Positions 1-31,872 of a DNA stretch of 64,000 bases are shown here, one piece after another. How positions within the stretch are numbered: position 1 is the stretch's first letter; the number at the start of each line of letters is the position of its first letter. Both the position numbers and the translations under genes were made by a program. Under the pieces are notes generated by a model, which saw only the letters and a list, made by a program, of their open reading frames with translations, had not been told where the DNA came from and did no database searches. Where the stretch lies: assembly GCA_963665115.1 (NCBI GenBank), contig OY762007.1, positions 3,424,001 to 3,488,000 of the forward strand, in the 5' to 3' direction. The DNA comes from an uncultured Rivularia sp. Its GTDB lineage: Bacteria; Cyanobacteriota; Cyanobacteriia; Cyanobacteriales; Nostocaceae.

Positions 1-562
1 CGAATTTCCTGCTTTATTTACCGAAGCAGATTTGCAAATAATTCGTAAATCAATTTCGGCTACAATTTGTCTTCTTGACACTAATGATAATTCAATTTAT
101 CAACCAGATTTATACAACTCAGAACAAAAAATAACCTTACCAGCACGTATAATTGCACTAGCAGATATTGGTGGATTGGGGATAGATGGAATTCCAGCTT
201 ATTTTCAAGAAGGTAGTTTGATATTGTTGGAAGAAAATCTTGACATTGTACCTTTGGTTGAAGAATTTGTTGCTGATAAAGAAAATAAGAGTAATAACAA
301 AGAAGTATATGAAAACCTTAGACAGCGACTTTTAAAAAGGGCTAAATTTCAGATCAGCTTTGCCAAAGGGCGCTATGCCAGGTTAAATAAAGAACTTGAA
401 GGTTTGCCTATAGAAGTGGTTTCAGCATTAAAACAAAAAGTCTTTAAATACCTCAACGAGGAAACAATTCAAGAAATAGAAGCTTTAACACCAATCGCTG
501 CTAGTACAAGTCTGGAAAAATTGATTGAGTTTTTTGAGCTATACAAGTATATTCATAACTAG
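1..562 (+). CDS. Hypothetical protein, 5'-partial (possibly the C-terminal part of an HD-type phosphohydrolase)
   Basis: Frame is open from the window start (EFPALFTEADLQIIR...). The ALADIG motif resembles the distal HD-domain motif. Confidence 0.5.
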   Translation, partial: EFPALFTEADLQIIRKSISATICLLDTNDNSIYQPDLYNSEQKITLPARIIALADIGGLGIDGIPAYFQEGSLILLEENLDIVPLVEEFVADKENKSNNKEVYENLRQRLLKRAKFQISFAKGRYARLNKELEGLPIEVVSALKQKVFKYLNEETIQEIEALTPIAASTSLEKLIEFFELYKYIHN

Positions 563-2803: not shown

Positions 2804-5800
2804 ATGAAAATGCTTGATACTCTTATTGGTGCGATCGCCGACTTTGCCAAAGATGAATTAAAGCGCAATGAAAGGGTTATTAAACTACTCAAACAATTTA
2901 ATCTAGATCCAGATCATCCTCCGGCGGAGTTTTCTGGTGTTTATAATTATGCTTTGGTTGAGTATGGGGTGGGGAAATCACTGGCAATTTTACAATTTTT
3001 TCGAGAAGACGAAATCCAAAAGGCGTTTCGTAAGGCTTATGATGCTGATAATCCGAATATTGTTATAGAAGAAGTTGAAAAAATTCTCCAACCCGATGAA
3101 TGGAATATTTTAGAAGAAGGAATTCGGGAAGAACAAATTGATGTATTGCACGAATTAGCGGAATTTAGCGCCGTTTTTCTCAAAGTTGTAGAATTAAGCC
3201 GTACTCCTGCTGAAGTTCAGAGAGACAGAAATATTGCGAGTTTGCAACAGGAATTGTCAACAATTAAGCAGCACTTGCATCAACTAGGAACCCTCAAAGA
3301 AATTAGCACCGAATTAGCAAAATTAACTAAACGACATTTGGAGAAACCTCACCCCGCCTTCGGCACCCCTCTCCTTACTAAGGAGAGGGGAAGGGGTGAG
3401 GTTAAACAACCAAAATGCAAAGCCGAAAATCTAGCCACACAGTTACAAGGTTGGTTTAAAACCCTCGGTTATCAATTTGAAAAATATCGAGTTTGGAAAG
3501 CAGATTATTTTGAATTAATTATCAAAATCCAAGGTAGAAGACGCTTCGATCGGATTTTGGTAAGGGGAATTGATGGAGAAGCAGAAATTAGCGATTTGAT
3601 AGCTTTGCGTCAATCTGCGACATCTCAAAAAACCGATGAAGGCTGGTTAATAGCTGCACGTCGGGTTTCTCGTGCTGCAAGGGATGAGGTAAATAAAGAT
3701 GAAAATGAAAATTTATTTTGCTATACCCTTGACGAACTTATTGATGAAACTGCCGATTTTACTAACTATATCAACTGGTTAGAAGCCGAGGTAAAACAAC
3801 GTAAAATCGATGAAATGTACGTTCCCTTAGCTTGTACCAAAGAAGAATTTGACCCCATCACGAAACATAAAATGGGGATTAGTCGCTACGACGAACAAGA
3901 TGGATGGATAGATGGTTACGTCGATACGTGGATAGATGACCCTGCAAAGGAGCATCTTTCTATATTAGGGGAATTTGGTACGGGAAAAACATGGTTTGCT
4001 TTGAATTATGCTTGGAATGCACTTTTGAAGTATAAGGAAGCTAAACGAAAAGGTTTAACACGTCCACGTTTACCGTTGGTTATCTTGTTGCGAGATTACG
4101 CCAAAGCTTTGGATGTGGAAAACGTCATGGCTGGTTTTTTCTATTCCCAACACGAAATCAGCTTAAATAGTTCCGTCTTTGAACAACTCAACCGCATGGG
4201 GAAACTGTTATTAATCTTTGACGGTTTTGATGAGATGGCAGCCAAAGTTGATAAACAACAGATGGTAAACAACTTTTGGGAATTAGCCAAAGTAGTAGTT
4301 CCCGGAGCAAAAGTTATACTTACCTGTCGTACCGAACATTTTCCCGAAGCCAAGCAGGGACGCAGTTTATTAAACGCAGAGTTACGTGCATCAGTTGCTA
4401 ATTTAACCGCCGAATCTCCGCAATTTGAAGTATTGGAATTAGAGAAATTCAGCGACGCACAAATAAGACAGGTATTTTCTCATGTTGCCAATAGCGACAC
4501 CGTAGACAAGATAATGCACAATCCCCAACTTCTAGATTTAGCACGTCGTCCGGTGATGAGCGACTTAATTTTAGAAGCATTACCAGATATCGAAGCTGGG
4601 AAACCAGTGGATATGTCGCGGGTTTACTTGTATGCAGTGCGACGAAAAATGGAAAGGGATATCAAATCGGAAAGAACATTTACATCTTTGGCAGATAAAA
4701 TGTATTTCCTGTGTGAAATCGCTTGGGAAATGCTTTCAAATGACCAAATGAGTTTGAATTATCGGTTGTTTCCCGATAGGATTCGGCGGTTATTTGGTTC
4801 GGCAGTTGAGGAACAAAAAGATTTAGATCATTGGCATTATGACATGATGGGGCAAACCATGTTGGTGCGGAATGCCGACGGTGATTACACTCCAGCCCAT
4901 CGTTCGTTGTTAGAGTTTTTTGTAGCTTATAAGTTTGCTGGGGAGTTGGGGGTTTTGGCTGATGATTTTGTGGAAGTTGTCAGAAACAGAGTTGGTGAGA
5001 AGGAAAATACTATAGCATTAGAGTTTTCTTGGGGAGAGTATTTTCAAAGTTATAGAGCTGCTGCTCTAGATTATCGATTAAAAAACCGCAGAGACGCAGA
5101 GGAAGGAAGTATAGAGGAGTTAAAGTGTTTTAAATGTGAATCTTTGGAGAAATCAAGAGAGACAGTTGGGAAAGCACCTTTGACGAAAGCGGTTTTAGAT
5201 TTATTGGTGGGGATGGTTGATGAGGGAAGTGTTGGGGAGAAGTTGTTAGAAGTTATTGAAGAGACGAAGGGGAAGAGGGAAGCTGAGGTTGGTTATGTTG
5301 GGGGGAATGCTGCGACTTTGTTGGTGAAGGTGGATAAAACGGGTTTGGAAGAAAAGGATTTATCTGGTGCGGTGGTTAAAGGTGGGGATTTTGCAGATGC
5401 TAGTCTACGTTGTGTTAATTTTAGCCAGACAAAATTAATTGATTCTACTTTTATCAAACCTTTCAGCTTAGTTTTATCTCTAGTATTTAGCCCAGATGAT
5501 AAATTATTGGTGACTGGTGGTGCTGATGGAGAAATTCGTTTTTGGGAAGTAGATTCAGGTAAACAGATTTCTAGTTTTAGAGCGCATAATAGTTGGATTA
5601 GTTGGATTGCTTTTAGTCCTAATGGAAAAATAATTGCTAGTAGTAGCCGTTCCAATGTTATCAAACTATGGAATTTTAACACTGGAGAACGCTTAAGTAC
5701 TTTAAGAGGACATACTGACAAAGCACGGCAAATATCTTTTAATCACAATGGTACTATTCTTGCCAGTAGTAGCGATGACCAAACAATAAAACTTTGGGAT

Positions 5801-18719: not shown

Positions 18720-19904
18720 ATGAGCAGAATCGAAACCAAAACCGAACCGATGACGATTAATTTCGGTCCCCAACATCCTTCGATGCATGGATGTTTCCGA
18801 ATTATTGTCACTCTCGATGGCGAAGACGTGATTGATTGCGAACCCGTTTTAGGATATCTGCACCGGGGAATGGAAAAAATCGCCGAAAATCGCACCAATA
18901 TCATGTACGTTCCTTACGTCAGCCGTTGGGATTACTACGGTGGAATGTTTAATGAAGCAGTTACGGTTAATGCTGTGGAGAAATTAGCTGACGTGCAGAT
19001 TCCTAAAAGAGCCAGCTATATCCGAGTCATAATGCTGGAATTAGCGCGAATAGTCAATCATTTACTGTGGTTGGGACCTTATATCATGGATATGGGCGCA
19101 CAAACTCCGTTTTTCTACACGCTTCGAGATAGAGAATTGATTCTTGATTTATTTGAAGCTGCTACGGGATACCGGATGGTGAACAACAACTATTTTCGTA
19201 TTGGTGGTGTTGCTGTCGATTTACCTTATGGTTGGGTAATTAAGTGTAAGGAATTTTGCGATTATTTCTTACCAAAGATAGATGAATACGAAAGACTAAT
19301 TACTAACAATCCGATCTTTCGCCGTAGAGTCGAAGGAATAGGAGTTCTCAGTCGCGAAGAAGCAATTAATTGGGGTATTTCTGGCCCGATGTTGCGGGCT
19401 TCTGGAGTAAAGTGGGATTTACGTAAGGTTGATCGTTACGAATGCTATGACGATTTTGACTGGGAAATAAAGTGGGATAAAAGTGGCGATTGTTTGGCTC
19501 GTTATGTGGTTAGAGTTGGAGAAATGCGCGAGTCTGTAAGTATTATTAAACAAGCCATTGCAGGTTTACCCGGTGGTGCTTACGAAAACTTGGAAGCCAA
19601 ACGCATGGCAGAAGGTAAAAAGTCAGAATGGAACGATTTTGATTACCAATATATTGCTAAAAAAGTTGCACCTACATTCAAGATTCCCAAAGGCGAACAT
19701 TACGTCAGAGTCGAATCTGGTAGAGGAGAATTAGGAATTTATTTAGTTGGTGACGACAATATGTTTCCTTGGCGTTGGAAAATTCGTCCCGCAGATTTCA
19801 ATAATTTACAAGTTTTACCAGAATTAATTAAAGGTGTAAAAGTCGCGGATATTTTCGTAATTTTGGGAAGTATTGATGTGGTGATGGGTTCTGTAGATCG
19901 GTGA
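18720..19904 (+). CDS. ndhH: NAD(P)H-quinone oxidoreductase subunit H
   Basis: [26 protein letters not shown]-terminal [12 protein letters not shown]; 394 aa. Confidence 0.95.
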
Positions 19905-20072: not shown

Positions 20073-20211
20073 CATTATCTCAAAATCTTTTCACTACTAA
20101 TAGGAATAATTGTACTACTTGAGCAGTTCTACCCAAAGTATTACCGACAACCTAACCTCAGAGCGACAAATATTAGAATTATTCTTGATATTGTTATAAA
20201 TGTAAGGAACA

Positions 20212-20422
20212 GAGCAACGCACTGGATGGGGGTTATGCCGCAGTGACCCATTATCGAATACCGAAGAAGAACGATTTGTCAGGTATTCGGACGGTGTGAA
20301 TAATTTAATAACCTTGGACGTTATAGAGTTTTTATCGTTTCCTCTGTTTCGTCGCCATCGAGGGGAGGCGCAACCCTCCGTCAGAGCGGTCTTAGATGGC
20401 GAACGTCCAACATGGTTTGCTC
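20212..20422 (+). ncRNA. Candidate structured ncRNA, copy 1 (family unidentified)
   Basis: Ends pair (GAGCAA/TTGCTC), with several internal stems. 12 differences from copy 2, and those in stems mostly keep pairing through G-U. Confidence 0.6.
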
Positions 20423-20510
20423 GTATTTCCAAATGCAATTATATCATTTGATCGACTTGCAACTCTTAATTGAGTTATGCTCCGGATTTAGATAATCCGA
20501 GGTTGGTTAA

Positions 20511-20721
20511 GGGCAACGCACTGGATGGGGGTTATGCCGCAGTGACCCATTATCAAATACCGTAGAAGAACGATTTGTCAGGTATTCGGACAGTGTAAAT
20601 AATTTAATTACCTTGGACGTTATGGAGTTTTTATCGTTTCCTCTGTTTCGTTGCCATCGAGGGGAGGCGCAACCCTCCGTCAGAGCGGTCTTAGATGGCG
20701 AACGTCCGATATAGGTTGCTC
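20511..20721 (+). ncRNA. Candidate structured ncRNA, copy 2
   Basis: Direct repeat of 20212-20422 at a period of 299 bp; ends GGGCAAC/GTTGCTC. Confidence 0.6.
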
Positions 20722-20802
20722 AAAAATTCACATAAATAATTACCACTTTTGCTGTTAACGTGCTTTGGATGATTTTATTATCCAAGGCGATTTTATTTTT
20801 TA

Positions 20803-20990
20803 TAGGGAGTTGGGAGTTGGGAGTAGGGAGTAGGAAGTAGGGAGTTGGAAGTTGGGAGTAGGGAGTAGGGAGTTGGAAGTAGGGAGTAAGAAGTAGGAAG
20901 TTGGAAGTAGGGAGTAGGGAGTAGGAAGTAGGAAGTTGGGAGTTGGAAGTTGGGAGTTGGAAGTTGGGAGTTGGAAGTTGGGAGTTGGGA
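20803..20990. repeat. STRR heptamer tract (GGGAGTW/GGAAGTW)n
   Basis: Tandem 7-mers. Confidence 0.9.
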
Positions 20991-21038
20991 ATAAAGAAGT
21001 ATTGTATTATAGATGTAATACGTATATTTTTATAATAA

Positions 21039-21654
21039 ATGCAGCGACAAATCTTAGCAGCTTACGACAGCGAAGGCATTTTTGTGTATCAAGCTTTTAA
21101 GCCTTGTATAGCCGAAGAAGCCTTACTTAAAGGAACTTTTCGTAAAGGTTTCAATTTGGAAAGAATGACATGGATAAAACCTTCATTTGGCTGGATGCTT
21201 TATCGTTCTGGTTATGCTACAAAACACAGACAAGAATCTATTTTGAAAATCAAGCTTACTCATGAAGGGTTTCAGCAAATTCTTAAACAAGCAATACCAA
21301 CATCATTTGATCGAGATATTTTTGAATCGGAAAGAGAATGGAAAAGAAGTTTGGATAATTCCGAGGTTCGCTATCAATGGGACCCCCGACAGAGATTTAT
21401 CGTTACGACGTTTAGAGCATCGTGCTTTGCAATTGGGTATTCGCGGTAGTGTGGTGCATAATTACGTAAATACCTGGATTTTAGAAATAGAAGAAGTAAC
21501 CGAATTAGCTCACCATATTCGAGATGCAGTAAATAATAAATTACAGAAAATACCAGATGTTCCGCAAGAAAAAGTTTATCAGGTAAATTCGGAGATTTGC
21601 CAAACTTTGGGAATAACTAATATTATTTCTGTTGACTCCCTTCCCGCTCTATAA
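21039..21654 (+). CDS. DUF4291-family protein; apparent +1 frameshift near 21385 is probably a sequencing error
   Basis: VYQAF...RMTWIKPSFGWMLYRSG...VRYQWDP|DRDL...RALQLGIRG; one extra C in GACCCCCGAC. Confidence 0.85.
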
Positions 21655-25569: not shown

Positions 25570-28500
25570 CTAAAATCTCGCTTCATACTGTACTCGAAAT
25601 TCACCCGCTTCGTAATCGTAAACAAATCTTGCTGAAGAGTTTTCGTTAATATCTTTCAAACCCGTTACCGAAGGAAATACCTGCAATCTAGTTAACCCAA
25701 TTGATTTACCCAAAGAATTTACAGGTTTTTGAGCTTGATATAAAAATTCTTGAGTAAGTTCGGTTTCTAAAGGTGCAACTAAATAGTCCAATACTAAAGA
25801 TTCAAGCAATTCCGTTTCGTTTCCACTGGTAAGTTGCTGTTCGAGTTTTTGTAGCGCTGCAAAAGTACGGTTTCCTAGCAACGATAAAATTTCGCTGTTG
25901 CTACGAGTAGGGGTACTTGTTAATGCTACTGCGGGGTTGTCGAGTAAGTCTTTGGTTTGTATACTTACTTTACTATTTACGTTGATGCAGTTAGCAACAG
26001 TTCTTAATTTGTTCGCTGAATCAGTAGTTGGAGTTCCTAATTGGGACAATCGGACGTTTCTTTGATATGTTATGCAAGCATCCCCATCAGATGCATCTCT
26101 ACCTAAAGAAGCAAGTAATTCGTTTGCTTCACCTTCAACTAAAATTCTCACATCAATTTGTTCGGGGTTTACTGCTGCAACGATATCATCTCGTATTTCG
26201 TTATCATTTGCTTGCAAACGGTCAAAATTTGGTGCATCAACTACTGTAGTTTGTAACTCTACATCAAGCTGGGGATTTAGTAAACTGCGACTTGGTAAAA
26301 ACGTCACTACTTGTTTGCGATCGCGCGTAATGAAAAATGAGTTTTCGAGTAGAAATAAGCTTCCTCGTTTGAGTTCAATTTCTCCATTTCCGCGTAGATT
26401 ATTCAAACCACCGTTAACTGTAATATCTCCCGCCATGCGGAAGTTAACTCGCGGTAGACTTCGGCTAAATTTAAATCCTCTACCTAAAGTTACTTTGAAG
26501 TTGTTAAATGTGGGGTTTATGGGTGAATTATTTGGCTGTTGGGGTTGGTTTAATTGTTTAGATTGAGTTGCAACTTCTTGAGTTGATGCATTTTTTACTC
26601 TTGCTTCTAATTCTTCCTTCTTTTCTTCTTCCTCGCGTTTGGGAATCTCAACTTTTCCCCTTTGTAAAAGAATATCTCCACTAATTACAGGATTTAATAC
26701 AGTGCGGGAAACTGCGATATTAGAAGCGATTTGTCCGTTGTATAATCCTTTTAATTTTATTTTTTTAGGTTCTATTTCTTCAAAAATAATATCTTCCGAA
26801 TCTTCATTTCTAGAACCTAAAATAACTCTTAAAGGTTTATTTCCGTTGGGTTGAAATATAGGTAAATTGCCAGCAATTTTAAACGGAGCTTCAGCTAAAG
26901 TACCAGATATTCCTTCTACTTGAATAGTTTCTTGCTGTAAATTAGCATTACCGACAGCAGTTAATTTAATTTTGCTTTCTAACTGCTTGGTTTTAATTGT
27001 GGCATTTTGAATATTAATTGCAGTTGTAGCTACTAATTCATTCAAGGCTCCTCGAATTGTAGGAGCGTTGGGATCTAATTCACCGTTAATCGCGATCGCA
27101 ACTTCTCCATTTCCTTCAATCCATTGCAGTTGATTTTGCGTGAAAGCATCTAAAAGCTGAAAAGCTTCGTTATCAATTTTCGCTTGTACTGCTACAGTAT
27201 TAGTTCTATTTGGCTGGAGGGGATAAGCCACCGTTGCGTCAACTTTGACAACGGAATTAGGAGTTGTAACGAGTTTGCCAACAGAATCAACATAGTTGAA
27301 ATTTCCAGCTAATTCTCCCAAAGGTTTTTGATTGATGGTACCGTTTACCAAAGAAAATGCACCTTGAGGAATATCTGGTTTGAATCCGCTTCCACCGAGA
27401 TTTGCTTGTAAATTGAAGGCACCACCGATATCAACTGGTAAATCAACAAACCTTTCTGCTAATTTAACAGGAATATTTGCAACTTTTACCGTTCCTAAAG
27501 ATTTGAATCCATCTAATTCTAAAGTTCCATCAACAGCAATTTCCCCACCTTCGACATTAACTTTTGCTGGATCTAATTGAATTATGCCGTTGTTATAATT
27601 TCCACTAGCAACAACTTTACTAATATCTATAGCTTGATTTTCTTTGACAACTACACCTAGATTCCGATTATACGTTACATATTCTTCTTGAGGTCGCCAT
27701 TCCCATTTTTCACCTAATAGCTGAAAATTAACTTGGGGATTTGTAAGTTTTCCAGCAACGACAACTTCTGCATCGTATTCCCCTTTAATATCGAATTGTA
27801 TGTTAGTATTATCTTCTTGTTGTAAAGCAGCTTGCTGTTGAATTTTATTAATAACTTCTGCAAATAAGCGTAATTGCGCGAGGATGGGAGCTTCTGGTTT
27901 TCCTACGGGTTGAGTTGGTACGTCAGCAACACTGCCGTATTCTGGATTTAATATGCTGCTAACTCCACCCTGCAAATCTTCTAAATTAAATACGTTTACA
28001 GCAGCGAAAATATCTTGTACTCTGCCATCATTCGCTACTAATTTACCGTTGATATCTTGAGATTTTAAATTATAATTACCTTGCAAAGCATATTCAGTTT
28101 TACCGATTTGCAAAGTTGCAGCATCTATACGAGCAATTTCTCCATCATAAGAGAAATCAGCAGCAAATTCTTTGGCTTTGACAGCACCGATGGCTGGATT
28201 TTCTACGTTAATATTTCCAGCAGTTGCTAAGTTGAAAAGATTTACATCCAGATTTCCGGTTGCTTTACCATCTACGGTAGTACCAATAGTTTCTTCGACA
28301 ACGGGTACCAGATTTAATAAGGATAAAGAAGCGTTTTTCAAATCAATATCTAAAACATCACCTTGTCTTCTACCACTAAGAAGAATCGGATTTTGAGTAT
28401 TTACTCCTTGTCTTAGATCGAAAAAGCTGGGAAGATAAGGAGATAAGCAATCTTGTCTGGTACAAGGTTGTAAACTTGCGGCGATTCGATCTGTTTTACC

Positions 28501-31500
28501 CTGCAAATCTATTTCGATGCTGTTTCCTAAGTTTACGTCAACGGGACCTTGTAATAAAGGTTGAAAAGCAATTTTATCTAAAGCAAGATTTCTTAATGCT
28601 AAATTTCCTGCTAATCTAACGTTACCGGGAGCAAAAGGTGCTGAAATCAAGTTTCTGCCGATAAGTCTACCGGAAAAATCGGCTCTACCTTTAATTTTTG
28701 GGATGCCTTCTTCATCTAACTCTCGCGCTATAGATTTTAAAGGAATTTTAGATAAATTGGAATTTGCTTCAACGTTTAAATCTGTAGCAACATTCCAAGA
28801 GGATATACCATCGTCACCAGGTACAACAACAATTTGTCCTTTCGCGTTTAATTCTTGTTGCAGGGTGGTAACATAAGCTTGGTTAGCTTGAATTAAAATC
28901 GGATTTCCTTCTAAGGCAGGTTTAACTTCTCCGCTTAAGTTTAATTTAGCCGATAGTTGGGAAAGTTCGGGACAGCTAATATCGAAACTGCGACACAATA
29001 AAGGAGTGTTGACGTTATTTGCATTGATATTGCTCGCGATTCTACCATTATTTAAGTTGGCGATCGCTCTTACACTACCTTTGGCAACTGCAAGATTTGC
29101 ATTAACATCGGCATTGAGATTATCAAAGTTATTTGCTAAAAGACGATCTATCTTACCAGTGACATTTACTCTACTATTATTTACCGTCACGGGTAAAGGT
29201 GAATCAGGTAGAAGTTGATTTAACGAAATTCGATTTGCATTTACAACAGCTTGTAAATTATTCGTTGCTAAATTACCGTTGGCATTGAAATTAATATCCC
29301 CTCTACTGCCAGGTACAATTAATCTTCCATTAGCAGTAGCTTGGAAACTATTTAATTTATTTAGTTTTTCGATAGATTCAAATTCCAATAGCTGATTTAC
29401 TCTACCGGAAACGTTAACTCTGGTATTCGCTACCGTAACGGGTATTGGTAATTCCGGTAAAAACGGATTTGCGGCAATACTATTAGCGTTGACATTTGCT
29501 TGTAATATACCTCGATTCAAATTGCCGTCAACTAAAACCCTACCGTTATTAACAGCTAAATTTAAATTAGCGTTACCGTTTACCCTAGATAAGTCAAAAT
29601 TATTGATAATATCTAAATTCCCAGCTAATCTGACATTACCGCGTCGTAAGGTAACTGGCTGATTTAATTTATTTAACCGAAATTGCTTTTTCTGCTCTGC
29701 CGATAATAAACTAGTGACGGGAAAAGAATTTGCATTTGCAACTAAATTCCAATTCTTCGTAGCAAAATTCCCATTACCATTAAAATTAACCCTTCCCCTT
29801 CCCTTAACTTCCGGTAAAATCAAATTTCCGTTAACAGAAGCTCGGAAACTATTTAAACTATCAATTGATTGATAATTAATTAAATCATTCAATCTACCCG
29901 AAACATTAGCTGTGGTATTCGCAACCGTCACAACCAAAGGTAATTCCGGCACAATTTTATTTAAACCAATTCCCCTAACATTGGCATTCGCCGTCAAAAT
30001 ACCTCGATTTAAATTACCGTTGACGGCAACATTCCCCTGATTAACATTTAAATTGACATCCGCATTACCGCGAATACTTCCAGGATTGAAATTATTTAAA
30101 CTTCCCGCCAAATTTATATCAGCACGTCGTAAAAATATTCTACTTTGCTTAATCCTTTCCCCAACATTTTCAACTTTCGCTAAAAACGGATTTAAAGTCA
30201 AAGTATTCGCATTAACAGCAGCATTCCAATTATTCGTAGCTAAATTGGCTCTACCATCAATATTTACCCTACCTTCAGCAGTTTGTATCGTATTATTTGA
30301 AGTAACTCGATTACCAGCTAACCTAACATTACCACCACCAGAAACCCTGCCAACAATATTAGCTTCAGCTTGCGGTAACTTCCAAGATAAAACACCGTTC
30401 GGATTTGCTAACGTTCCTTCAACTTCACCTTCTGCCAATAATCTTCCAAATCTTACCATATCATCGGTAACGCCATAGGGAGCTACAACTGCTCCCGGAT
30501 TGGCAACTATTGCATCAAAAACTAAAGCTACTTTCGATTTACTAAAATCCTTAACTTCCGGTAAAGACTTCGGGAAAGAAACCTTACCCTTAGCGAGAAT
30601 ATCGCCACCAGTTGCAGGAGTAGCGCGAAATTCTTGTAAGAAAACTTGTTTAAAATTGCCCCCGAAAACAGCATTTACTTTACTGAATGCCGTCTTATCA
30701 ACAACTATCCCTCTGTTACTAAAAACATTCCCCAGTAAAATTGGATTTTCCGCATCTCCCTTAAGTAATAACTGAGCCTGTAAATTACCATCTATATTTA
30801 CCGGAGATTTTAAAGAAGTTGTTTTCAGCAGACTTCCAATACCGAAAGAATTCGTATTAACCTTTAAATCAAAACCTTCATCTAAATCAGCAACCCCAGA
30901 AACATCAGCAATCAAATTACCATAACTAGCTTTGGTTTCCCCAAAACTTACCTTTTGCCCATCAAAATTTAAATTAGCAGTAGCATTGACGGGAACTTTC
31001 AATTGTGGAGATTTTACCTGTAATTTCTGTAAATTACCAGTACCCTTAACTTGAGTTTCAGCGAATTTCGATAAACCCGGTAAATCAATTTCCAAATCGG
31101 CATTTAACAAACCGCTAGGAATAGTTACCGGAAGATTATCTTTGACATAATTACTCAAATCCGGTAAGGAAAGATTATCAATCCTGGCATTAATCTTGCT
31201 TTTATAATCAGTTAGCTGAGTAACGCCATCAATATCAACCTTCCCCTTAACAACTGGCGCATTAATACCATATTGCAACTGCCAAGACTTATTTTGACTG
31301 TAATTTAGATAGCCGTTAATATCCTCAACAGCAAAAGGATCTTTCAAAGCTTGGGGAAGCACAGCAACCTTTGCTCTGCGTAAATTTATTTTCGCATCAA
31401 TATCAAACGGAAGCTCCCCTTCATCGCTCGTATCTAAATTAAGCCTTACCCATTCCCCTTGCTTATCTTCTTCTACATAAACATCCGGCTCAATCAAATT

Positions 31501-31872
31501 TATGCTTAAAGGAAGCGTTTGAGTAAACAGCAGCGGAATTGGATTAAACCCGATAACTACAGCTTTAGCTTTAACATAATTTGGGTCATTTTCTGTCGCT
31601 GGAATTGAAGAGTCTTCCAATCTTACACCAGTTAACGACCAACTTTTTACCGAACCAACCTTTACAGGGCGATTAATAAACTCAGTTAATTGCTCATCCA
31701 ATAAACCCGGTAACTTGCGACGAATAAAATAGTCTAAGCCAAAAAAACCAGCAACACCCAAACCTAGAAGAGAAACACCGGCAATTTTGATGGCATTACG
31801 CAGCCAAACACGTTTTCGCGGTTGACTTGGTGGATTTGGGGTTGAATCTTGTGGGGTATTTGGCGGTGTCAT
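25570..31872 (-). CDS. tamB: TamB/AsmA-family translocation and assembly module protein
   Basis: N-terminal TM anchor, long beta-rich Asn/Gly repeats, C-terminal DUF490-like region (NPQLDV, LTSTPTRSNSEILSLLG). Confidence 0.85.
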   Translation of the reverse strand: MTPPNTPQDSTPNPPSQPRKRVWLRNAIKIAGVSLLGLGVAGFFGLDYFIRRKLPGLLDEQLTEFINRPVKVGSVKSWSLTGVRLEDSSIPATENDPNYVKAKAVVIGFNPIPLLFTQTLPLSINLIEPDVYVEEDKQGEWVRLNLDTSDEGELPFDIDAKINLRRAKVAVLPQALKDPFAVEDINGYLNYSQNKSWQLQYGINAPVVKGKVDIDGVTQLTDYKSKINARIDNLSLPDLSNYVKDNLPVTIPSGLLNADLEIDLPGLSKFAETQVKGTGNLQKLQVKSPQLKVPVNATANLNFDGQKVSFGETKASYGNLIADVSGVADLDEGFDLKVNTNSFGIGSLLKTTSLKSPVNIDGNLQAQLLLKGDAENPILLGNVFSNRGIVVDKTAFSKVNAVFGGNFKQVFLQEFRATPATGGDILAKGKVSFPKSLPEVKDFSKSKVALVFDAIVANPGAVVAPYGVTDDMVRFGRLLAEGEVEGTLANPNGVLSWKLPQAEANIVGRVSGGGNVRLAGNRVTSNNTIQTAEGRVNIDGRANLATNNWNAAVNANTLTLNPFLAKVENVGERIKQSRIFLRRADINLAGSLNNFNPGSIRGNADVNLNVNQGNVAVNGNLNRGILTANANVRGIGLNKIVPELPLVVTVANTTANVSGRLNDLINYQSIDSLNSFRASVNGNLILPEVKGRGRVNFNGNGNFATKNWNLVANANSFPVTSLLSAEQKKQFRLNKLNQPVTLRRGNVRLAGNLDIINNFDLSRVNGNANLNLAVNNGRVLVDGNLNRGILQANVNANSIAANPFLPELPIPVTVANTRVNVSGRVNQLLEFESIEKLNKLNSFQATANGRLIVPGSRGDINFNANGNLATNNLQAVVNANRISLNQLLPDSPLPVTVNNSRVNVTGKIDRLLANNFDNLNADVNANLAVAKGSVRAIANLNNGRIASNINANNVNTPLLCRSFDISCPELSQLSAKLNLSGEVKPALEGNPILIQANQAYVTTLQQELNAKGQIVVVPGDDGISSWNVATDLNVEANSNLSKIPLKSIARELDEEGIPKIKGRADFSGRLIGRNLISAPFAPGNVRLAGNLALRNLALDKIAFQPLLQGPVDVNLGNSIEIDLQGKTDRIAASLQPCTRQDCLSPYLPSFFDLRQGVNTQNPILLSGRRQGDVLDIDLKNASLSLLNLVPVVEETIGTTVDGKATGNLDVNLFNLATAGNINVENPAIGAVKAKEFAADFSYDGEIARIDAATLQIGKTEYALQGNYNLKSQDINGKLVANDGRVQDIFAAVNVFNLEDLQGGVSSILNPEYGSVADVPTQPVGKPEAPILAQLRLFAEVINKIQQQAALQQEDNTNIQFDIKGEYDAEVVVAGKLTNPQVNFQLLGEKWEWRPQEEYVTYNRNLGVVVKENQAIDISKVVASGNYNNGIIQLDPAKVNVEGGEIAVDGTLELDGFKSLGTVKVANIPVKLAERFVDLPVDIGGAFNLQANLGGSGFKPDIPQGAFSLVNGTINQKPLGELAGNFNYVDSVGKLVTTPNSVVKVDATVAYPLQPNRTNTVAVQAKIDNEAFQLLDAFTQNQLQWIEGNGEVAIAINGELDPNAPTIRGALNELVATTAINIQNATIKTKQLESKIKLTAVGNANLQQETIQVEGISGTLAEAPFKIAGNLPIFQPNGNKPLRVILGSRNEDSEDIIFEEIEPKKIKLKGLYNGQIASNIAVSRTVLNPVISGDILLQRGKVEIPKREEEEKKEELEARVKNASTQEVATQSKQLNQPQQPNNSPINPTFNNFKVTLGRGFKFSRSLPRVNFRMAGDITVNGGLNNLRGNGEIELKRGSLFLLENSFFITRDRKQVVTFLPSRSLLNPQLDVELQTTVVDAPNFDRLQANDNEIRDDIVAAVNPEQIDVRILVEGEANELLASLGRDASDGDACITYQRNVRLSQLGTPTTDSANKLRTVANCINVNSKVSIQTKDLLDNPAVALTSTPTRSNSEILSLLGNRTFAALQKLEQQLTSGNETELLESLVLDYLVAPLETELTQEFLYQAQKPVNSLGKSIGLTRLQVFPSVTGLKDINENSSARFVYDYEAGEFRVQYEARF

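Follow-up and report, generated by a model that had tools for sequence, protein, structure and literature searches.

The tandem repeat carried by this stretch of Rivularia DNA (64,000 nt in all, hereafter the window) arose by duplication of a gene for a conserved non-coding RNA. That RNA is CyVA-1 in its full length, an orphan motif whose catalogued 78 nt amount to less than half of the molecule. The 3′ domain of each unit and the pairings that cross between its two halves lie outside the Rfam model, though the 5′ domain is catalogued. Comparison of the sequences predicts that crossed loop-loop pairing locks the two halves together, giving a compact pseudo-dimer. Much greater certainty attaches to this fold than to what the RNA does.

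Identity and extent of the repeated RNA

Both copies lie on the plus strand between ndhH (18720-19904) and a DUF4291 gene. Copy 1 occupies 20212-20422, with a conserved core at 20219-20407, and copy 2 occupies 20511-20721, with its domain 1 at 20518-20596 and its domain 2 at 20616-20706; a spacer of 88 nt (20423-20510) separates them. Re-alignment of the copies gave 211 nt for each, 12 substitutions and no indels, and their identity ends at the borders that had been predicted. As had also been claimed, the units are richer in GC (49% and 48%) than the flanks (38%, 34% and 27%). BLASTN found only these two copies in the 8.69-Mb genome, the next match having an E value of 0.11. Since a second Rivularia metagenome-assembled genome (MAG) has the same tandem, with a nearly identical spacer and the same neighbours, the duplication is not an assembly artefact. 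The original prediction, made from the letters of the window, had read the pair as a duplicated plus-strand structured RNA of two domains, and in this the copies, the fold and the covariation bear it out.

It had further proposed that the RNA was unrecognised, and this is not the case. An Rfam search places the 5′ domain in CyVA-1: 20219-20297 and 20518-20596 match RF02965 at 75.7 and 70.1 bits (cut-off 41.4) and cover all 77 positions of the model. Because these matches exceed the gathering score, the novelty falls on the prediction's own terms, which named an Rfam hit as what would remove it. CyVA-1 is entered in Rfam under the type 'Gene; sRNA'. The discovery paper gives it an average length of 78 nt (Weinberg et al. 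2017, PMC5737381, in part), and a metatranscriptome of halite cyanobacteria is reported to contain its transcript at low abundance (10.1101/761684, in part). No function for CyVA-1 was found in the literature searched, where the supplement of the discovery paper may hold more on tandem copies and gene neighbours.

The 3′ domains match the same model weakly (32.1 bits, E 1e-4, in copy 1; 26.4 bits in copy 2), and each unit is therefore composed of two related domains. At the window locus and 69 others from RF02965-positive genomes, domain 2 is present after 73 of the 74 CyVA-1 domain 1 matches examined, following a linker that ranges from 6 to 76 nt across the 73 units. With a second domain following so regularly, and pairing with domain 1, the boundary given in the catalogue is drawn too short. 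The unit is about 200 nt long rather than one domain of about 78 nt, and the Rfam model, whose structure line has no pseudoknot, covers less than half of the RNA. What is shared with CyVA-1 as catalogued is the three-way junction and the occurrence in cyanobacteria and Acidobacteria, whereas the length of about 200 nt, the second domain, an extra hairpin and the two crossed helices set the present unit apart. R1, a model of both domains that contains no pseudoknot pairs, scores copy 1 at 181.9 bits; copy 1 is itself part of the R1 alignment. The Rfam fragment is unable to form either long-range helix, so experiments on it would use a broken RNA. Two junctions and two pseudoknots maintained in two phyla correspond to what the discoverers, in part of their paper, took as the criterion for a biochemically sophisticated RNA (PMC5737381).

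Nested helices and crossed loop-loop pairing

In the alignment of 73 units, the top corrected mutual-information pairs resolve into seven nested and two crossed helices. Over 54 pairs, 93.7% of 3931 cells are paired and 51 pairs have double changes, against 36-46% paired in controls slid by 1-3 columns. Domain 1 of copy 1 (20219-20297, plus strand, as are all the features that follow) is the CyVA-1 three-way junction with two large-loop hairpins, and its helices P1 (20219-24/20292-97), P2 (20227-30/20247-50) and P3 (20254-62/20282-90) all covary. A variable linker (20298-20316), which in part lengthens the stem closing domain 2, leads to the diverged CyVA-1-like junction of that domain (20317-20407), where covariation likewise supports P1′ (20317-20/20404-07), P2′ (20323-28/20342-47) and P3′ (20352-59/20395-402). 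The loop of domain 2 also holds the hairpin P4′ (GGAGG/CCTCC with loop CGCAAC, 20364-20379), which has no counterpart in domain 1 and is 98.1% paired with double changes in 5/5 pairs.

The alignment allowed the predicted stems to be corrected. The GGGTTAT/GTGACCC hairpin had been given in the wrong register, covariation supporting TGGG (20227-30) with CCCA (20247-50), and the hairpin given as GAGGG/CCCTC should read as P4′ above. The CCG/CGG hairpin proposed for the 3′ domain is not supported, because 20386-90 pairs instead with the 5′-domain loop at 20237-41. The end helix GAGCAA/TTGCTC is strong in these two copies but is not a family trait, since it reaches -6 kcal/mol or better in 13 of the 73 units and in 15% of mismatched controls. 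When the differences between the copies are placed on covariation-supported pairs, the five predicted switches between Watson-Crick and G-U pairing (20213, 20293, 20325, 20353 and 20409) are real and favour the plus strand, and so is the one broken pair (20256). The folding energy of copy 1 is -71.0 kcal/mol on the plus strand and -59.4 on the minus strand; the fold has a z score of -2.58, with 1/200 shuffles equally stable.

The two crossed helices, which the original prediction missed while describing the two-domain layout correctly, were found by covariation and join the hairpin loops of one domain to those of the other. The first pairs the L1 segment of domain 1 (GCCGC, 20237-20241) with the L2′ segment of domain 2 (GCGGT, 20386-20390). 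The second pairs L2 of domain 1 (AACGAT, 20270-20275) with L1′ of domain 2 (ATCGTT, 20334-20339), which comes after a near-invariant GTTTTT tract. Across the 73 units the L1/L2′ helix is 97.2% paired with double changes in 5/5 pairs, and the L2/L1′ helix is 97.5% paired; together they reach 97.4%, compared with 82.1% for loop pairing within domains. Kissing of L1 with L2 in the same junction was considered and rejected, being 82% paired with four double-change pairs and, on that measure, no better than shuffles. Conservation in the family is concentrated around the kissing helices and not in the junctions.

As shuffles ignore kinship, the changes were also mapped on a tree, which was built without the kissing columns. 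Partners changed on the same branch seven times for columns 25-246, six times for 26-245, nine times for 68-188 and three times for the fourth-best pair, and the best crossed pairs each rank first of 188 columns for shared branches. The edge pair 24-247 showed no co-change on the tree, and 8/10 pairs of the within-domain alternatives shared no branch. A held-out set was then available from a search with a domain 2 pattern, which constrained the domain 2 side only and gave at least 120 matches. Flanks were present for 80 of these, 75 of them confirmed by R1; of 84 rows, 14 were dropped as duplicates, units of the first set or, in one case, a fragment, which left 70 units. In these, L1/L2′ is paired in 341/350 cells (97%) and L2/L1′ in 417/420 (99%), while the within-domain alternatives reach 82% and 86%. 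AGGA in L2 might pair with UCCU in L1′, but this was rejected since G58 varies while C195 does not, and the top 70 column pairs contain no further long-range pairing except the extended closing stem of domain 2.

Within the window, the kissing segments of copy 2 (20536-40, 20569-74, 20633-38 and 20685-89) are identical to those of copy 1, and none of the six pair-altering differences falls within the four loop segments. Beyond these unchanged kissing codes, the local tandem adds little.

On sequence evidence, the covariation is compatible with pairing within one molecule or between identical molecules. If the crossed pairs formed between molecules, identical RNAs could build rings, cages or filaments; such an assembly, made of RNA only, would itself be the function, as a store or scaffold. 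We regard this as quite unlikely. It would be in keeping with the linker of 6-76 nt and with the shared codes of the two window copies, which could pair mutually. Precedents are also described in parts of two sources: the prohead RNA (pRNA) of phi29 multimerises through loop-loop pairs (PMC2241910), and among natural RNAs shorter than 200 nt both cages and strand-exchanged dimers occur (bioRxiv 10.64898/2026.07.01.735769). Against it, the units are self-sufficient, and the link to a protein described below is left unexplained. Furthermore, one other genome (G040) has two tandem units with different, self-consistent kissing codes, as expected for folding within one molecule. Assembly of this kind is in any case compatible with, and not exclusive of, the membrane-docked particle that we consider the best explanation.

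The likeness to phi29 pRNA lies in the three-way junction and in two loops whose pairing partners are loops on the adjacent unit (PMC2241910, in part). The pRNA, however, acts as separate molecules on a phage motor, whereas here two diverged units lie in one chain encoded by a cellular genome, with mutually exclusive loop codes and no Rfam match to pRNA; no packaging genes occurred among the 174 neighbour ORFs scanned. ROOL and GOLLD (PMC12286853) and manA and EGFOA (bioRxiv 10.64898/2026.07.01.735769), as far as parts of these sources describe them, are likewise orphan, covariation-defined RNAs with kissing loops, but none has a sequence or model match to the window RNA.

Transcription, distribution and genomic setting

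The RNA unit is independent of the downstream gene. The nearest downstream ORF of at least 90 aa is on the opposite strand in 35/66 loci, and the families vary. The antisense ORF at 20115-20438, for which a coding check had been suggested, is not conserved: a stop-free minus frame is found in 4/73 units, and in copy 2 stop codons on either side close the frame. A cis-acting riboswitch or leader for pncB or other downstream genes is accordingly very improbable. Such a switch would fit the presence of pncB downstream on the same strand in 9/70 loci, and tandem pseudo-symmetric domains recall tandem aptamers. There is, however, no consistent class of same-strand downstream gene, strong hairpins follow the RNA in 50/73 units (compared with 26/73 upstream), and a small ORF on the opposite strand often lies between the RNA and pncB. 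A conserved ORF of about 50 aa is convergent to the RNA in 11/70 loci (L058:2806-3045 and ten others) and occurs also in L076 near 5650-5800.

Signals flanking the window pair were less distinct. A possible promoter (CGACAA, 19 nt, TG-extended TATTGT; 20164-20194, plus strand) was picked out by eye, from similar spacing in a few homologues. A consensus scan returned no plus-strand promoter upstream of copy 1, and TAnnnT shows no positional peak upstream of the 73 units. After copy 2, a terminator-like hairpin with a T tract (20761-20799, plus strand) is weak when taken alone because one was found where 0.9 is expected by chance. Contigs from four of the 11 RNA-labelled runs on offer, which carry no information on strand, ends or level, hint weakly at transcription. 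Three runs from three studies each gave a contig confined to the unit, at 20216-20404 (no difference), 20238-20408 and 20245-20405; in the fourth, from a related strain, contigs bridge the spacer and extend upstream to 20082. We infer that transcription yields a separate RNA of about 200 nt, with possibly one transcript through both copies at this locus.

Other features of the locus were recorded. A heptamer tandem repeat of the GGGAGTA/GGAAGTT type (20803-20991) lies between the terminator-like hairpin and the DUF4291 gene; such repeats are ordinary in filamentous cyanobacteria. The DUF4291 gene itself (21039-21654) is split over two frames at a run of five C, which is six C in the sister Rivularia MAG, and this suggests homopolymer errors in these assemblies. 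The sister locus has an extra acetyltransferase-like ORF in the interval from ndhH to the RNA (L144:726-1178). At three other loci (L178, L202 and L206) the RNA faces, in convergent orientation, the 3′ end of a gene that resembles the one at window 25570-31872.

RF02965 matches occur in 62/151 genomes sampled from the order. With R1 the RNA is detected in 64/151 genomes of the order and in 16/151 of the phylum, with 1-3 copies each. Among the matches listed, carriers include Microcoleus, Coleofasciculus, Nostoc, Chamaesiphon, Rivularia, a Gloeobacterales MAG and Acidobacteriota. Most of the sampled planktonic and model lineages are without the RNA, which may explain its being overlooked. Independent tandem duplications recur, at L033 (in G040, the genome with two codes), L053 (G025), L020 (G143) and L201. 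In two genomes (L084 and L094 of G265; L018 of G125) the duplication takes in, besides the RNA, a 140-aa ORF that has a leader-like N-terminus, and the gene downstream of that ORF is, we assume, a peptidase-containing ABC transporter-like gene.

Patchy distribution, a changing locus, local duplications and the Rfam type of CyVA-1 might suggest a base-pairing regulatory sRNA or a selfish repeat (MITE), a retron or a Y RNA. This group is already largely refuted, and we give it hardly any credence. The exposed loops that an sRNA would use are already taken up by pairing inside the RNA, and they change in concert. An RNA with 1-3 copies per genome, and two in 8.69 Mb here, was rejected as a MITE or REP element. 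As the original prediction had it, the unit is unlike such repeats: its flanks share no direct repeat, it has no target-site duplication, and what might pass for a terminal inverted repeat is the 6-bp end complementarity, which is not conserved across the 73 units. The likeness to a retron that had been raised led nowhere, the nearest of seven reverse transcriptase (RT) matches being about 1.5 Mb away. A retron msr-msd was rejected as well, there being no conserved a1/a2 closing repeats and an end helix no different from mismatched controls in the 73 units. The companion suggestion of a Y RNA fared no better, since TROVE is present in 13/62 RNA-positive genomes where 13.1 are expected, and the TROVE gene of the window genome is 381 kb from the RNA. 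A bacterial Y RNA was rejected on account of the lack of a family-wide 5′/3′ end helix and of an Rfam match. Tabulation of neighbours, as the prediction had proposed, placed ndhH and DUF4291 as local neighbours only, and none of the 174 flanking ORFs encodes an RT or TROVE protein.

A six-helix membrane protein as candidate partner

A protein of about 230 aa is encoded directly upstream of the RNA, on the same strand, in 26/70 loci. Among the matches listed in a second set, which is Microcoleus-heavy and partly shares genomes with the first, this gene is directly upstream in 31/75 loci. The adjacency extends to another order (L091) and to the Gloeobacterales MAG (L159), where the neighbouring protein is without the C-terminal helix, or tail, found elsewhere. 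The protein has no sequence match in Pfam, NCBIfam or the PDB. Its predicted model (pLDDT 88) contains a beta hairpin, six long helices and the C-terminal helix. Foldseek returned no match at E 0.001, and the best VIA-align Z values, 12.6 for a designed six-helix barrel and 11.5 for TMEM45A, fall short of what is asked of helical bundles. Such a six-helix barrel is generic, and as none of its matches can be trusted the protein says nothing about activity. Atlas matches were to unnamed cyanobacterial clusters only, with DUF7010 at 0.77 a lead at most, and a profile search of 1.8 billion representatives gave 110 matches and no clear distant family.

Across the 151 genomes of the order, 45 have both the RNA and the protein, 17 the RNA only, 18 the protein only and 71 neither. 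This co-occurrence is weakened by the fact that adjacent genes can be lost jointly by deletion and that related genomes are not independent. The tail is more telling, being intact in 42/45 RNA-positive genomes and in 0/18 RNA-negative genomes (19 copies). The count refers to at least one intact copy per genome, in 44 of the 45 co-occurring sample genomes together with G184, and so describes best copies and not every paralogue. On a quick core tree built without the tail, tail state changes six times, of which at least four are forced. Tail loss in the RNA-negative genomes may nevertheless represent as few as three events, and the protein copies of these genomes are more diverged overall (core conservation 0.80). 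Positions relaxed in them cluster at residues 15-45, 95-100 and 199-226, and from charge we infer that the N-terminal segment, the TM2-3 loop and the C-terminal helix face the cytoplasm. RNA-negative genomes have no RNA near the membrane gene; one of them (G090), whose membrane protein is without the tail, retains a decayed RNA copy elsewhere (L123:1455-1648, 54.7 bits).

The exceptions among RNA-positive genomes are G087, with a stop before the tail, G066, and the window genome itself, in which the tail lies in the next frame. The window genome's membrane gene is 188 kb from the RNA (G000:C1:3255920-3256622, minus strand; L076:5921-6623). Its frame shifts after the last helix, just before the tail, which is fully encoded in the next frame; in the sister assembly the tail is in frame and a shift occurs elsewhere, at a T run. 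Both shifts look like homopolymer assembly errors, gene decay being the alternative. In the window genome this gene heads a cluster with pncB (L076:730-6623), a locus from which the RNA is gone, and the other genes of the cluster are presumably nadD, a Nudix regulator (NrtR-like) and nadE.

The membrane protein would be an accessory partner and not an obligate one. By this query, 17/62 RNA-positive genomes are without it, including all six of one family (f17), as are 4/4 RNA-carrying Acidobacteria among the matches listed, which are MAGs and may be incomplete. In two genomes (G077 and G050) the RNA is still at the old locus and the membrane gene has gone.

These data allow us to propose a mechanism, which we hold tentatively although it is the likeliest of those considered. 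Full-length CyVA-1, doubly kissed and separately transcribed, would be the RNA part of a membrane-docked particle seated on the C-terminal helix of the six-helix protein. The RNA would be transcribed apart from its neighbours, and its chain would fold within one molecule, pairing in cis, to give a doubly kissed structure with two-fold pseudo-symmetry. Support for the kissing helices may come from the near-invariant GUUUU tracts and AGA flanks, which may also provide the surface on which the RNA is recognised. The N-terminal segment, TM2-3 loop and C-terminal helix of the protein could then bind that surface on the cytoplasmic side, so that the RNA would dock on the cytoplasmic tail of its partner where the partner exists. 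The tail of this candidate partner, 30 residues long and kept only where the RNA is present, offers a direct experimental lead on CyVA-1 function.

The proposed particle would work in the manner of OLE RNA with OapA, though unrelated to it. OapA binds OLE RNA and takes it to the membrane, and oapA is the commonest neighbour of OLE, as described in part of PMC12265935. The likeness, drawn by analogy, is that of a structured RNA with an adjacent membrane-protein gene (26/70 loci, the window locus not among them). The RNAs differ in size (about 200 against about 600 nt), and there is no Rfam match to OLE. In contrast to oapA, which lies downstream and encodes four helices, the gene here lies upstream and belongs to another family with six predicted helices, its product being a candidate binder.

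A SnoaL/NTF2 protein with a hydrophobic N-terminus, which we propose from its sequence to be exported, lies beside the RNA in nine loci among the matches listed (L152:1676-2128, L154, L157, L167, L175, L180, L195, L196 and L217). Its close homologues (E below 1e-30) come from 11 genomes, 11/11 of which are RNA-positive, compared with 27/42 for weaker relatives. The window genome has only a 33% relative, and the close form occurs in 11/62 RNA-positive genomes. One could extend the membrane-docked reading to a new class of membrane RNP, unrelated to OLE, in which the RNA on the tail would gate or report small-molecule traffic, with the exported NTF2-like protein outside, NAD salvage the likely setting and a single kissing module, carried by phages, that interferes; as a whole this is possible but rather unlikely.

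The same observations bear on another reading, namely that CyVA-1 is a trans-acting, ligand-binding RNA in which a kissing helix and U tract form a pocket for an ion or a small molecule, two per molecule, and the membrane and NTF2-like proteins belong to the same pathway without being partners. U tracts can form triples in ligand pockets, and the centring of conservation on the kissing helices rather than the junctions would suit a pocket there. The RNA persists where the membrane protein is missing, it recurs ahead of pncB (9/70), and the protein gene of the window genome heads pncB-nadD-nrtR-nadE-like genes; the SnoaL/NTF2 neighbours and their 11 closest homologues, all in RNA-positive genomes, point the same way. 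We nonetheless consider this reading unlikely: there is no expression platform, the survival of the tail only with the RNA is not explained by it, and the close NTF2 form is found in just 11 of the 62 RNA-positive genomes.

That cyanobacteria and Acidobacteria can keep the RNA while lacking the membrane protein would also be expected if the RNA bound or decoyed a widespread soluble protein, with phages carrying a cut-down copy and the membrane gene an old neighbour. A scan of viral sequences with the domain 2 pattern gave three matches, none confirmed by R1, and scans with two rearranged patterns gave 16 and 38. Rfam scanning of 40 of these loci (3 + 16 + 21 of the 38) yielded one weak match, a viral contig (L288, about 370-470, minus strand) on which an L2 hairpin is directly followed by an L1′ hairpin just before a start codon, in a gene leader. 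Such a decoy seems distinctly improbable to us, given that no candidate protein was found, that only 1/16 matches of that viral scan looked real and that the tail correlation is left unexplained. TROVE does not track the RNA, and nor does a lipoprotein encoded upstream in two loci, which was rejected as a partner because it is present in 126/151 genomes.

Two subtypes can be told apart in the 73-unit alignment: 19 units have a long linker and G at column 181, and 54 make up the rest. As judged by eye, 17/19 long-linker units lie beside the membrane gene, compared with 9/54 of the others. By sequence type, the units from Acidobacteria belong with the long-linker group, and both subtypes are kept in several genomes, one unit of each.
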